A DNA stretch of 40,957 bases from a virus. Its lineage: Duplodnaviria; Caudoviricetes. Shown here one piece after another: positions 33,834 to 40,110 of the stretch (positions are counted from its first letter, which is position 1; every line of letters begins with the position of its first letter). Under the pieces are notes generated by a model. The model had not been told where the DNA came from, ran no database searches, and worked only from the letters and a program-made list of their open reading frames with translations. Position numbers and translations under genes: made by a program. The DNA lies in the IMG/VR virus record IMGVR_UViG_3300048598_000529, positions 1-40,957 of that record, one strand, 5' to 3'.

Positions 33834-34567
33834 TTCGTCTCCTCGCCCGCGATGGCGGCACGTCCGCTGTGAATGTCCTGCGTCCACACGGCAGACAGAA
33901 TTAGCCCGCCCGCTTTGATGAGATGGTCACGGCAATCCATAGTCTTGTCGCCGCCGAGCTTCGCACGCTCAAGGTGAGCAACTATGAAACCAAGCCAGTC
34001 AATCAAGGCGTGCGACAAGTCACCACGACGGGGATCGTCGTATCCAATGCCGTCGTCGTCGCGAACTCCCCAATACTTCTGCTGTCCGTGCAGTCTCGCT
34101 TCAGCGAACGCTTGCAGGATCGGAATGATTTGTTCAGCATCTTTTCCAGCCGCCGCCTCGATCTTCCGCAGGCTGGCGATTCGCTCCGCTGCGACACGCT
34201 CGGCATCGCGCCAGTCCTTCACAATATCATCCAGATCGCCGGTGAAGTTGCAGAGGTTCGCAACTCGCTCCTTCCAGCTCATGCCAGAAGCCAGCATCAG
34301 GGTGGTAGCTACTCCGGTCACGGTGTTCATCTCCTTGGATCGCCTCGCCTGGTCTAGTCGCAGGCATTCGTTCTCTTCACGCAGGCGGGCGTTGTCGGCA
34401 CGCAGTCGCTTTACTTCAGCATGGATGTTTGGGAACGCTGTCCAGATACAGTCTCTCCAATCCTGCAATGCTTCCAATGAGTGTGTTTTTGCCACTTCGT
34501 TCCATAACGCTTCCAGTCGCACCATCACATCCGGAGCCTTCCCCAACACGTCGTTTTCGTCGGTCAT
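33830..34567 (-). CDS. coiled-coil protein with possible MazG-like C-terminal domain
   Basis: EARLHGQQKYWG...HALIDW..FI...RDHLIKAGGLILSA. Confidence 0.6.
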   Translation of the reverse strand: MTDENDVLGKAPDVMVRLEALWNEVAKTHSLEALQDWRDCIWTAFPNIHAEVKRLRADNARLREENECLRLDQARRSKEMNTVTGVATTLMLASGMSWKERVANLCNFTGDLDDIVKDWRDAERVAAERIASLRKIEAAAGKDAEQIIPILQAFAEARLHGQQKYWGVRDDDGIGYDDPRRGDLSHALIDWLGFIVAHLERAKLGGDKTMDCRDHLIKAGGLILSAVWTQDIHSGRAAIAGEETK

Positions 34568-34719
34568 TTGTCGCCTCGTTTCAGTTTGTCGATCATCTCT
34601 ACAAGGTTGTCATACGCAGGGTCACTTTTCAGAAACTCTCTCAACTCCACCACCTCCAGCGCCGCCAGCAGGCGACGCTCGTAGTGAGCCTGGGCGAGTT
34701 GTTTCATTCGGTACGTCAT
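34564..34719 (-). CDS. 51-aa hypothetical protein
   Basis: MTYRMKQLAQAHYERRLLAALEVV...KRGDK; ATGA overlaps at both ends. Confidence 0.6.
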   Translation of the reverse strand: MTYRMKQLAQAHYERRLLAALEVVELREFLKSDPAYDNLVEMIDKLKRGDK

Positions 34720-36758
34720 GCGGCACGCTCCACTTTCAGTATGCGTTCAAGAATCCACCGGACGACGGGAACCGCCATGCTGTTTCCCAACGCCCGATAC
34801 TTCGGCCCGTCCGCAGCGGGTTTTCCGCGGAATTGGATGTCAAGATAGTCGCCGGGGAAGCCCTGCAACCTGGAACACTCGACGGGAGTAAGTCGGCGAA
34901 CGGCCATGGGTAAAGCTACGCATGGCCGCATATCGCTAGTCGCGCCAGCGGTCGCGCCAGCGGTCGCGCCCTGCAAAGTCGGGCATACGCTTTCCGGTGC
35001 GCCGCGACCGTTACGCGCGAAACGGGTTTGGAAGGCGACGACCGTGGTACTGCTGTTCTCGATCGACCCCGGCGGTTTTGTGCGGATGCTACCGGCGGTG
35101 TCCGTCTCGAACGCTGTCCGCTTTGTTTTGTTCGTCCCGGTAATGGTGTACCCAATCGGCACTATCGGTGTCCCCCTCCCCGTCCCGTCCTCGCTGGCGT
35201 CAAATCCGTCGGCTCGAAGGGAATGCGCCGTCTCAAAGAAACCCCCGATCAGGTGTCCATCCTTCGTATCGCCGTCCGTTCCCTTGCTGTCCCGCTCCTG
35301 CAACGCCCACGCTGTCTGTGGTAGCGATGATGCGTCCGGTATAAACGTCCTGCCCATTAAGCCCCCCCCGTTATGCGCGCCGTTGCTCAAGCAACCGACG
35401 ATGTTGGAGTCGTCTTCCCGTCGCCGTCCCGCGTATCCGCCTTTGCCACTGCTGTCAGCGCCTCGTGTAAGGCTCGCGGCAACTCTTTCCCCCGCTTCGC
35501 GGCTCGGCGCAGGATGCCCCGACAGGCTGTCGGAGATAGGAAATACTTTTCCGAAGTTTTCGACTCTAATACTTCCGAGAGTGACGATTGTTTGTTCGGC
35601 TTCTCTGATGAAATCAAACCACGGCTGAACCCACTCCATGTCTGCAAAAATGCTGCTACTTGTGTGTCTCGCATAATCGGTAAATCCCTTTACTGCGGTC
35701 AAACCAGATGATGCCGCGCTCCAAAAGCTCGGGGATGAGTTTGGTAAGCGAATGATGCGCCGCGCTATGAATAGAGTCAGAATCGCACAGGAATAGATTC
35801 TCGATTGCGTTGTCTCTCTTGTTGCAGTTGATGTGATGCACTCGCTCATGGATAGCAAGCACTCTTCCAAGATGCTCTTCCATGACGTGTCTGTGTTCAG
35901 GAACCCGTCGCGCCGATCCGCTGCTGGTACAGATTCTTGATATTTTGTACCCCCTGAATTCTTTGATCCCGCCGCAGAACTCTTTCCACGAACTGATTCC
36001 GAGTCGCCTCGCCCGCATTCGGACAACTGCTGGATCTCGTCCAAGTAATTTGCCAATTTCGACGCTGCTCCTGCCTCGTGCATTCTGAATAACTTCATCC
36101 TCCGTTTTAGTGAATGCACGGGTCTTGTTGCGTCGAAGGTTAAGTCGCCTGAGACGATGTGCGATTGATCCGATAGTTCTTCCAAGACAAGCAGCAAGTT
36201 CTCCATCAGACATTGATAAATAGTCAACGCGGATTCTGTCGTCTTCTTGGACAGTAAATGGTCGATGTGTTCGCCGCATACAAAAACCCTCCTTCTTCGT
36301 TGTGGAACTCCATGAAACTGTGCATCAAGAATGTCCACGTCAAGGACGTATCCCATCCCTTCAAGATCATCCAAGAAATTCTTAAACCCTTCGGCGCATT
36401 CTGTCTGGATGATTCCAGGTACATTCTCAAACGAAATCAACGGCCATCGATTCTTTCTCACCAGTTCCAAAAACACAAAAGTTAATGATCCGCGATCGCC
36501 AGCAAAACCAGCCCGCTTTCCTGCCACAGAGAAGTCTTGGCACGGTGTTCCCGCGAAAACAATGTCAACTGAGGGGATTTCTGTGTCATGGAGTTTCGTC
36601 ATGTCGCCAAGGTTAATTGACTCGGGATGCCGCACGCGCAGAACTTCGCAGGGGAATGGTTCGATTTCACTGGAGAAGACCGACGTGATAGGAAGTCCCA
36701 TCGCCGCGACTTCCGGCGCCCCGATCCCGCTACAGAATGTGCCCATGCGGAGGCTCAT
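34716..36758 (-). CDS. DNA (cytosine-5) methyltransferase with a ~240-aa in-frame insertion
   Basis: Motif I FCSGIG, IV GTPCQDFS, VI ENVPG, VIII QRRRRVF, IX RRLTPVECSRLQGFP, X YRALGNS. Confidence 0.92.
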   Translation of the reverse strand: MSLRMGTFCSGIGAPEVAAMGLPITSVFSSEIEPFPCEVLRVRHPESINLGDMTKLHDTEIPSVDIVFAGTPCQDFSVAGKRAGFAGDRGSLTFVFLELVRKNRWPLISFENVPGIIQTECAEGFKNFLDDLEGMGYVLDVDILDAQFHGVPQRRRRVFVCGEHIDHLLSKKTTESALTIYQCLMENLLLVLEELSDQSHIVSGDLTFDATRPVHSLKRRMKLFRMHEAGAASKLANYLDEIQQLSECGRGDSESVRGKSSAAGSKNSGGTKYQESVPAADRRDGFLNTDTSWKSILEECLLSMSECITSTATRETTQSRIYSCAILTLFIARRIIRLPNSSPSFWSAASSGLTAVKGFTDYARHTSSSIFADMEWVQPWFDFIREAEQTIVTLGSIRVENFGKVFPISDSLSGHPAPSREAGERVAASLTRGADSSGKGGYAGRRREDDSNIVGCLSNGAHNGGGLMGRTFIPDASSLPQTAWALQERDSKGTDGDTKDGHLIGGFFETAHSLRADGFDASEDGTGRGTPIVPIGYTITGTNKTKRTAFETDTAGSIRTKPPGSIENSSTTVVAFQTRFARNGRGAPESVCPTLQGATAGATAGATSDMRPCVALPMAVRRLTPVECSRLQGFPGDYLDIQFRGKPAADGPKYRALGNSMAVPVVRWILERILKVERAA
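35387..35674 (-). CDS. alternative-frame ORF nested in the methyltransferase (EcoHK31I-beta-like)
   Basis: SLSEVLE...KYFLSPTACRGILRRAAKRGKELP..L..AL, a pattern I recognise from ORFs overlapping phage C5-MTases; ATG lies inside the HNH 3' end. Confidence 0.55.
   Translation of the reverse strand: MRDTQVAAFLQTWSGFSRGLISSEKPNKQSSLSEVLESKTSEKYFLSPTACRGILRRAAKRGKELPRALHEALTAVAKADTRDGDGKTTPTSSVA
35656..36279 (-). CDS. HNH homing endonuclease with N-terminal HTH/Myb-like repeats, nested out of frame in the methyltransferase
   Basis: FT..ED..I repeats; EHRHVMEEHLGR.L...E.VHHINCNKRDNAIENL; AAGGAGG 8 nt before the ATG. Confidence 0.88.
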   Translation of the reverse strand: MRRTHRPFTVQEDDRIRVDYLSMSDGELAACLGRTIGSIAHRLRRLNLRRNKTRAFTKTEDEVIQNARGRSSVEIGKLLGRDPAVVRMRARRLGISSWKEFCGGIKEFRGYKISRICTSSGSARRVPEHRHVMEEHLGRVLAIHERVHHINCNKRDNAIENLFLCDSDSIHSAAHHSLTKLIPELLERGIIWFDRSKGIYRLCETHK

Positions 36759-37627
36759 CGCTCGCCTCCGGGGGAGAGGGGAAATTCACGGACGCGAAGA
36801 TCGGAGGGGAAGTCCTCAAGCTCGCCGACCACGCGGCCCGGCAATCCGCACTCCATTTGCTTCATGAAGAATGGCACACCCGCAGACTTGCACTGATCGC
36901 GGATTGAGCGTGCCCAGTCGGATTGCATCGGTCGCCGTTGTGCGCCTGATTCGCAGCCACAGATAACCCAGTGGACTGGTCCTTTGCCGAATGGTTGTTC
37001 GCCACCATATGCGACATTCCATATCTCGCCGGTCAGTGCATTCAGTGCAATGGTCGGCGGTTCAATCGCAACGTAACGGAGATCGACATCGCCAAGCAGC
37101 GGCTCGCAGGACAGGAACCGCACCGCCGCAGGGATACTCAGCAGTCGCGGGATACGCTCATCAGCCGCCGCCTGATTCTCCACCGACGTGCCAACCCAAC
37201 TTCGCTCAAGCACCTGGGCGTCGAAATACTTCGTCATGTTCTCGGGTCGCTTCGTCAGCAGCAGGAATTGCAGGTGCTCGCACTCCATGATGAGGACAGA
37301 CAATCGCGTCCGTGCCGCCTGCACGTCGATCCACGAACCGTCGGGCATCGTCTCCGGCCCCTCGCCAACATCGGCAAGCGAGGCACAGAAAACGCGGTGA
37401 CGTTCGCCAGCTTCTTTCGCCTTGCGGTTCCAGGAATAGACTTCCCGCCAAGCGGATTCAGCGGCAATCACACGCGTACCATTCGGCCCCCATATTCCGA
37501 GCGTCTTCGGGTTTCGCTTCGAGAGTTTGTCCGCGTAGCAGAATTTGCAGCCTCCGCTGACTTTGGTGCAGCCGCGCCATGGATTAAATGTGTGGTGCGT
37601 CCATTGAATTTTCGAGTTTTCAGCCAT
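36755..37627 (-). CDS. DUF5131 (phage Gp37/Gp68) family protein
   Basis: SKIQWTHHTFNPWRGCTKVSGGCKFCYA; LLTKRP; RFLSCEPLL; WVICGCESG; VPFFMKQ. Confidence 0.92.
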   Translation of the reverse strand: MAENSKIQWTHHTFNPWRGCTKVSGGCKFCYADKLSKRNPKTLGIWGPNGTRVIAAESAWREVYSWNRKAKEAGERHRVFCASLADVGEGPETMPDGSWIDVQAARTRLSVLIMECEHLQFLLLTKRPENMTKYFDAQVLERSWVGTSVENQAAADERIPRLLSIPAAVRFLSCEPLLGDVDLRYVAIEPPTIALNALTGEIWNVAYGGEQPFGKGPVHWVICGCESGAQRRPMQSDWARSIRDQCKSAGVPFFMKQMECGLPGRVVGELEDFPSDLRVREFPLSPGGER

Positions 37628-39199: not shown

Positions 39200-40110
39200 T
39201 TGCTCGTCACCAGCCTTATCTTTTCGAGTTCGCGTTGGGTTGTGTTTCTCGGATTGCTCGCGGCCAGATACTTCGGAAACTGCGACTTCAAAACCCCCAA
39301 CGAGTGACAGGATTTCACCGCCAACTCTCGTTGATCCTGCTCTCGAAAATACGCGTCCATCACCTCGCGGAGTTGTTCGGGGTCGTTCTTGACCCTGTTC
39401 AGCATCCAAGTGATGTGCTCGCCATCCTTGCCACCGTTGAACGGATAGGTTTTTCCGTGCTTCCTGTTCCACAATTCGCAGAAGTATTTCACTGCCGGGC
39501 TGTGGTTCGGGTTGACGACCTTCCGTGTTTTCTTCGGGACAGGCGGTGGCGAAGCCGCCGACGATGATGTATTTAATTCGGGAGCGGGAGCGGGAGCGGG
39601 AGCGGGAGCGGGAGCGGGAGCGGGAGTGCCGTGAAGTCGCGTGAAGTCGCCGTTAAGTTGCCGTGAATGGCCGTTAATTGGCGTGAAGTCCCTAGACTTT
39701 TGCCACGCGATTTGACGGCAACTTTCACAGCAAAACTTTGCGTTGCTTGCGGAAGAGTTGAACTCGGCTCCGCAGTTGTGGCAGATTTTCACCTTCCGGC
39801 GTTCGATCTCGCGCTTGAAACGACCGCGAACGTATTCAGGCGCGTGATCGTGAAGGTCGTGGATATGCCATTTTCCGTCGATCTCGTCGATCCACCGGCA
39901 ATCCCTTAACGCATCGAACAAAACTCCTTTTTCTCCGGTCCATTCAGCCGCGAGTTCAACGTCCATCTTGTCGCCAATGAGTGAGTTGCCAGCTTCGTAG
40001 CCGACTCCCCACATGGATTCGAGATGAGCCTGAACGTAGACCGGTGGAATGCCCAACAGATGAGCAAGTCGCCTGAACTTAGGATGATTTCTCAATCCTG
40101 GTCGAGCCAT
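39196..40110 (-). CDS. phage replication initiator protein
   Basis: HPKFRRLA...LESMW N-terminus; IHDLHDH; Zn finger CHNC...CCESC; PA linker; upstream of dnaB; GGAG RBS before ATG 40110. Confidence 0.75.
   Translation of the reverse strand: MARPGLRNHPKFRRLAHLLGIPPVYVQAHLESMWGVGYEAGNSLIGDKMDVELAAEWTGEKGVLFDALRDCRWIDEIDGKWHIHDLHDHAPEYVRGRFKREIERRKVKICHNCGAEFNSSASNAKFCCESCRQIAWQKSRDFTPINGHSRQLNGDFTRLHGTPAPAPAPAPAPAPAPELNTSSSAASPPPVPKKTRKVVNPNHSPAVKYFCELWNRKHGKTYPFNGGKDGEHITWMLNRVKNDPEQLREVMDAYFREQDQRELAVKSCHSLGVLKSQFPKYLAASNPRNTTQRELEKIRLVTSK
39579..39690. repeat. (CGGGAG)8 microsatellite plus six phased CGT(G/T)AA repeats; putative iteron origin
   Basis: CGGGAG x8 at 39579-39626; CGTKAA at 39630, 39640, 39651, 39662, 39672, 39682. 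Confidence 0.7.

Follow-up and report, generated by a model that had tools for sequence, protein, structure and literature searches.

HNH homing endonucleases of the I-HmuI type, whether free-standing or encoded within introns or inteins, combine an HNH_3 core with extra DNA-binding modules. A further arrangement is the ShiLan domain, or Pacc40 gp60 insert (Gosselin 2023, PMC9957025; Arsenault 2025, PMC11855218). The latter paper describes it as an in-frame, stop-free insert of ~200 codons in a phage N4/N6 methylase that hides an HNH gene, and leaves open how the hidden nuclease is translated and how the host enzyme handles the passenger peptide (PMC11855218). For M.EcoHK31I, published reports describe a small chain (beta) encoded in another frame within the large-chain (alpha) gene (PMC2836561, PMC3404938); this chain is needed for methylation and tolerates the loss of its first ~42 residues (PMC2836561).

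Here we describe a locus in a stretch of viral DNA of 40,957 nucleotides (the window), in which an HNH endonuclease gene and a beta-like frame lie inside the gene of a C5 cytosine methyltransferase. This locus and ShiLan share an insert that is absent from homologs and stop-free in the host frame, an HNH gene in the +2 frame, no detected sign of an intron or intein, and a patchy, disjunct distribution. The HNH cores are 53% alike over residues 124-166, and the ShiLan HNH likewise lies at +2, in gp65. However, the hosts differ (PF00145 here, PF01555 in ShiLan), as do the insertion sites, and the present HNH protein carries Myb-like repeats where that of ShiLan has zinc fingers. ShiLan has a GTG start with no ribosome-binding site (RBS) and no third frame, and is described from ten phages; the nuclease described here has an ATG and an RBS in motif VIII, its family comprises more than 100 proteins, and the locus adds a beta frame. 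Neither the host-frame insert nor beta matched the ShiLan region; identity with the ShiLan domain was rejected on the different host and the missing host-frame homology.

As in M.EcoHK31I, a second chain resembling beta is encoded in an alternate frame inside the alpha gene. The EcoHK31I beta peptide ..EHPSVEEECTLSQVLETC.. matches 'EWP...CSLSDILET' of insert-free relatives (LSEVLE here), a likeness assessed by eye on ~35 residues deduced from deletion primers (PMC2836561 supplement). The beta chain found here keeps 31 residues before the shared motif, to be compared with the ~42-residue loss reported as tolerated in EcoHK31I. Unlike our locus, EcoHK31I has no HNH gene, and its alpha chain is reported without motif IX, which looks canonical here. 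The likeness to I-HmuI-type homing endonucleases lies in the HNH_3 core, the added DNA-binding modules and the insertion at a conserved catalytic motif, but no splicing element was found and the host gene would be rescued by its open reading frame.

A literature search for this C5 element, thin on subscription journals, found only the ShiLan paper. The strategy as such was already published (ShiLan, 2025); what this family adds is its size, an RBS built into the gene, a restart for beta and, likely, the domestication of an overprinted frame. To the questions left open for ShiLan it offers testable answers, namely an RBS within a catalytic motif, a second-subunit restart and selection on the host-frame peptide. 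Should the models hold, it would also be a traceable case of a folded domain born from the alternate frame of a mobile gene.

Locus and genomic setting

The window is a provirus record, ~53% complete, with genes for an integrase, terminase, portal, capsid, replication initiator and DnaB; the domain scan covered 19 of its larger ORFs. The three-frame locus belongs to the replication arm and follows a DUF5131 gene (Table 1). Because positions 34825-37124 are matched by a 2300-nt contig of run X1, possibly the sample from which the record itself derives, with 4 differences and 0 gaps, the sequence is not an assembly artefact. An earlier note, made from the sequence alone, had reported a 680-codon open methyltransferase frame, a complete 207-aa HNH endonuclease in a second frame and a third-frame ORF with SLSEVLE..KYFLS..ACRGILRRA. 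Each of these was found again, the methyltransferase at the same coordinates and with its motifs intact, the HNH protein with a PF13392 match; to the third ORF we add an identity, since it resembles M.EcoHK31I beta and appears to be restarted by the element. A search for internal promoters, with terminators also sought, gave one weak promoter-like site at the locus, 1.1 being expected. The replication initiator of the window contains a PAPAPAPAP tandem repeat (~39600-39650).

Table 1. Features of the three-frame locus, in window coordinates.
Feature	Position	Strand	Remarks
C5 cytosine methyltransferase, large (alpha-type) chain, 680 aa, frame 0	34716..36758	-	PF00145, E 1.6e-50
Host-frame insert, ~232 codons, residues ~161-393, ends approximate	35580..36278	-	stop-free, conserved, predicted all-helical
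HNH endonuclease, 207 aa, +2 frame	35656..36279	-	PF13392, E 1.5e-8
Shine-Dalgarno-like AAGGAGG	36288..36294	-	8 nt before HNH ATG, written in motif VIII Arg codons
Beta-subunit-like ORF, 95 aa, +1 frame	35387..35674	-	ATG 16 nt before HNH stop
Purine-rich stretch before beta ATG	35675..35690	-	seen by eye, unscored
Decayed remnant of ancestral upstream beta frame, 68-aa ORF cut by stops, +1 frame	36224..36430	-	open in insert-free alleles

The methyltransferase frame and its insert

The alpha chain is laid out as motifs I-VIII, insert, variable region and motifs IX-X, with PCQ at residue 72, ENV at 111, QRRRR at 153-157, RRLTP at 621 and YRALGN at 654; RRLTPVECSRLQGFP at residue 621 is what we take to be motif IX. 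The model of full-length alpha matches the M.HhaI-type fold, and its Foldseek listing against the PDB contains methyltransferases only. In the variable region, window positions 34940-34970 hold a short tandem repeat, GATAGATAGAT.

The element is widespread: of the 120 top-ranking homologs of the alpha chain, 113 align with the insert in the host frame and 7 are insert-free. The distance from QRRRR to SLxGH is 258 residues in the window, 250-270 in relatives and 26-27 in the 7 insert-free homologs. Alignment with these HNH-free homologs, a check that the earlier note had proposed, defines a net insert of ~232 codons; the stretch of about 240 codons that it had singled out as unlike a methyltransferase is thus present, with its extent refined from 36270-35550 to 36278-35580. 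For family-wide analysis, scans with an HNH alignment recovered 82 near-full-length HNH loci, 69 of them nested at the same site, and de-replication at 90% identity, with shorter matches excluded, left 52 loci (41 nested and 11 free-standing). Motifs IV and X occur in one ORF in only 23 of the 41 nested loci, the other 18 being cut by locus ends, missed by the search patterns or interrupted by a stop in the variable region.

The open methyltransferase frame through the HNH gene of the window is not due to chance: synonymous resampling of the HNH gene predicts 10.9 host-frame stops, with 0 of 300 resamples stop-free, and codon permutation predicts 5.0. Across the non-redundant nested loci (41/41) there are 0 host-frame stops in 8171 codons, where 153 (codon permutation) or 405 (resampling) would be expected and where the third frame holds 671. 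The 11 free-standing relatives have 108 stops in the host phase (2022 codons, 107 expected). Since the nested loci were retrieved via their HNH frame, they were not selected for an open host frame. Before de-replication a single host-frame stop was seen, in 1 of 70 nested loci (L063); this locus is 99.8% identical to an open one, so that the stop reflects either an error or a null allele of recent origin. Frequent stops in homologous inserts, which would have spoken against the earlier proposal, were thus not encountered. The host phase is the easier of the two, as free-standing genes have 193 stops in the other phase against 108 here, and it is also the phase used by ShiLan and by HNH genes nested at other sites (L002, L096, L117, L127). 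From these counts, the host frame is evidently kept open by selection, and the locus family is under strong selection.

Sites that are silent in HNH and change the host residue differ at 0.33, compared with 0.75 for doubly silent sites (12 pairs; 66 doubly silent sites only). Identity at four-fold sites of HNH is 0.54-0.88, compared with 0.25-0.63 in the 5' half of the methyltransferase, which lies outside the overlap (8 diverged scorable pairs). With a held-out profile, from which relatives more than 35% identical were excluded, the real host frame outscores its codon-permuted versions in 40/40 loci (z>2 in 37; median 5.8), whereas free-standing relatives give z of -0.8 to 1.7. HNH wobble positions 22, 24, 26, 32 and 79 are fixed at 0.91-0.97 for one base. 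The helix-periodicity signal is modest (z>0 in 37/41 loci, z>2 in 9; window z 0.9). Together these comparisons argue that the host-frame insert is conserved at the amino-acid level, beyond stop avoidance.

In the AlphaFold model the insert consists of eight helices and one loose loop, with pLDDT mostly 80-96 outside that loop within the full protein and a pTM of 0.72 for the insert alone, although alignments of overlapping genes may bring HNH-frame covariation into fold and complex predictions alike. No specific known fold was recovered for the insert and candidates were rejected as generic helical bundles: the best match is a three-helix bundle (model residues 156-245, 88 aligned, rmsd 1.8) at Z 12.7, a value inside the range that the fold-comparison tool deems uninformative for helical bundles. 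A viral library gave one match at E<=0.001 (507 aa, 29% identity), probably a family member. The insert is thus predicted to form a folded helical domain within the enzyme. The earlier suggestion that the methyltransferase "tolerates" its insert agrees with the stop-free host frame; the wording seems too weak for a peptide that is conserved and predicted to fold.

The HNH gene and a likely ribosome-binding site in motif VIII

The HNH protein comprises two Myb/HTH-like repeats, an HNH_3 core (EH-R...ERVHHIN..K.DN...NL, with H171 and H175 invariant) and a short C-terminal tail. Its Shine-Dalgarno-like AAGGAGG is built from the Arg codons AGA AGG AGG, and its ATG overlaps the GTA TGC (V-C) codons of the methyltransferase. 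The idea of an RBS made from methyltransferase Arg codons, already raised from the window, gains support from the family. AGA or AGG make up 83/130 motif VIII Arg codons in nested loci, compared with 3/67 in insert-free alleles and 86/218 at other Arg codons of the same nested genes (p 1.4e-5 against motif VIII), and median anti-SD pairing is -6.3 kcal/mol in 39 nested loci as opposed to -0.75 in 18 insert-free loci; the loci are related, so the p values for codons and RBS are optimistic, and the insert-free sample is narrow (one query plus cluster J). An in-frame HNH start codon lies 17-29 nt past the Gln of the motif in most nested loci; in three GC-rich loci (L014, L092, L097) the rule applied finds no HNH start within 75 nt. 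In insert-free alleles the motif VIII Arg codons are at the same time part of the beta coding sequence, and given this double use the codon shift was likely possible only after beta had been restarted downstream.

The third frame and the beta-like subunit

The 95-aa ORF consists of a new 31-aa leader followed by the core LSEVLE...KYFLS..AC.GILRRA. In insert-free alleles, the open +1 frame starts 84 or more codons upstream of motif VIII. This upstream frame contains stops in 36/39 nested loci versus 0/18 insert-free loci, while a beta-like ORF lies downstream in all 41 nested loci, its ATG between -19 and +2 nt from the HNH stop in 39 of them and its restarted leader 31-33 residues long in 30 of 36 scored. 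The purine-rich stretch ahead of the beta ATG reads AAGGGA in the window and GGAG in many relatives; it falls within HNH G-I/V-Y codons, in DNA that is read in three frames. Target-site duplication as the origin of the new leader was rejected (hhalign probability 0.3% for 36 nested leaders against 22 insert-free segments), the new leader showing no recognisable homology to the ancestral one, and the beta profile had no match at E<=1 among solved chains.

The predicted alpha-beta complex scores 0.89, the best of 3 controls scoring 0.00; the mark is reached by 116/157 solved and 2/215 mismatched pairs, counts that are approximate with self-built alignments. At least 48% of the contacts recur between runs, and partner pLDDT is at least 71. 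The predicted contacts include beta residues 1-32 and, on the alpha side, 114-163, insert residues 175-223 and 343-347, and 616-676 in motifs IX-X. The model thereby places the new leader with the catalytic domain on one side and the helices of the insert on the other. On these sequence comparisons, the third frame likely encodes the small subunit of the methyltransferase.

Beta-like frames also match 529 plasmid records, the plasmid and phage matches including P1 dmt. On plasmids they mostly lie under E. coli Dam-family/cytosine methyltransferase genes, apparently without an annotation of their own. In two proteins, P0147 and P0155, beta seems to be fused to motifs IX-X.

Mobility and integrity of carriers

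The 5' halves of insert-bearing methyltransferases do not form one clade (32 versus 21 rows, p-AU 2.7e-6). A nine-member group on the 5'-half tree, named after the tree had been viewed, is rejected by the HNH data. The HNH tree contains 7 changes between nested and free-standing states, for which escape and repeated entry are the candidate directions; a host-frame profile test found no trace of a nested state in free-standing HNH relatives.

Nine phage records carry the insert, all of them cluster J mycobacteriophages. Cluster J phages hold both states at ~94% flank identity, with a net insert of 696 nt; their nucleotide alignment was used for the flanks only, as the gap is misplaced owing to the differing 5' halves. 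Carriers also have a divergent 5' half from ~nt 116 to motif VIII, as expected from co-conversion or from recombination with a different donor. Scattered presence could also stem from repeated loss or plain recombination. The cluster J alpha ORF ends in the variable region in insert-bearing and insert-free alleles alike, and in Thibault the 5' end is frameshifted while the insert is still open, so some carriers may be inactive. In L005 and L243-L247 (cluster J), a G run of 8 or 9 bases ~200 nt past the beta stop region shifts the alpha frame and motifs IX-X lie in a separate ORF, which could be phase variation or decay.

Cultured mycobacteriophages exist with the element (Constella, Bombitas) and without it (Dove, Beem), so that homing and splicing are testable in M. 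smegmatis. Outside the phage records, hosts of genome records include one Verrucomicrobia MAG and two Firmicutes MAGs.

Proposed mechanism and alternative explanations

We consider it probable that the locus is an overprinted, never-spliced element encoding a likely homing endonuclease, with the helical insert and the beta restart keeping the enzyme active. The nuclease gene occupies the +2 frame where motif VIII ends, and the methyltransferase frame passes through it stop-free. One mRNA would yield three proteins, namely alpha with its insert, HNH from the Arg-codon RBS and beta by coupling to the end of HNH. The helical domain of the insert and the catalytic domain are predicted to hold the new beta leader, by which the enzyme would stay active. 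HNH would cut or nick insert-free alleles near motifs VII-VIII, and repair would copy its gene into the cut allele, carrying flanking sequence along. At somewhat short of an even chance, overprinting may further have created a new folded domain of 230 residues that now works as part of the methyltransferase, clamps the leader supplied by the element and locks the invader in by a ratchet without splicing. Tentatively, and with about the same weight, the lock-in itself would follow from the stops that fill the ancestral beta frame upstream: were the element lost precisely, no beta start would be left and the enzyme would be dead.

An unspliced overprinted element might also carry its insert as a tolerated passenger loop, its apparent conservation and fold being side effects of HNH coding and of the need to avoid stops. 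Insert-free alleles are common, the insert fold matches only generic three-helix bundles, helix periodicity is weak, and the ShiLan insert was modelled with poor confidence as a distanced hairpin (PMC11855218). We nevertheless judge a mere passenger unlikely, given that several HNH wobble positions are fixed beyond what stop avoidance needs, that the held-out profile test is positive throughout and that the insert helices are predicted to contact the beta leader. A partnership of HNH and methyltransferase, in which the nuclease acts like a restriction enzyme against competing phage or host DNA and is no longer selfish, would fit its presumably constant co-expression with the methyltransferase, its invariant residues and the 14 of 111 distinct loci not classed as nested that have a methyltransferase match, several of them truncated or nested at another site. 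Against it, the two Myb-like repeats and tail would point to a long recognition site such as homing enzymes have, presence is patchy among near-identical phages, and relatives are also inserted antisense, breaking the methyltransferase (L071, L098); we give this reading very little credence.

Removal of the insert as RNA or protein (cryptic intron, intein or ribosomal bypass), with the open frame incidental, is scarcely more probable. The GenBank annotation of phage Schatzie raises the suspicion of an intron ('unable to determine intron boundaries'), PMC3706429 reports atypical spliced introns in cluster J phages, and many members have a Cys at the 5' junction. However, positions 34500-37000 contain no Rfam intron match at E<=1, the only match being an unrelated one of 20 bits, and as HNH and beta ORFs cover the insert end to end, there is no room for an RNA core; a group I or II intron was rejected on the Rfam result and the wholly coding insert. 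An intein was likewise rejected, since the insert model is all-helical and has no HINT fold, and the His-Asn end with a C/S/T nucleophile is not conserved in the 40-row alignment. The earlier statement that intein termini and an intron core are missing agrees with all of this. Joints seen in contigs fall outside the insert and have short sides; run X7 is probably DNA. Splicing would, moreover, leave the zero stops and amino-acid-level selection unexplained and would take away the only beta start. In dozens of phages the shared DNA remains readable and conserved in the host frame, so splicing likely never removes it. The splicing-free strategy proposed at the outset is therefore supported by the open host frame and the absent intron and intein features; it had already been published in 2025 as the ShiLan domain.

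Annotation and related nested genes

More than 100 database 'methyltransferases' conceal two uncalled genes; in GenBank, nested methyltransferase and HNH genes are annotated in some cluster J phages. In L008 the methyltransferase gene harbours, past motif IX, a second and different HNH of the Zn-finger type, again in its +2 frame (L008:3111-3992); the host frame is open for 892 codons. Other HNH genes use this phase too, each within a long open ORF (L002:2177-2725, L127:1970-2524, L096:2171-2707 and L117:616-1290), those of L002 and L127 between motifs IX and X of C5 methyltransferases. Close HNH relatives also lie antisense in or beside C5 methyltransferase genes (L098:1072-1695, L071:378-1067, L094:2156-2782); in L098 the gene is split by an insertion that lies a few codons ahead of motif VIII. 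One family member, P0112, carries a further in-frame HNH domain in its variable region.
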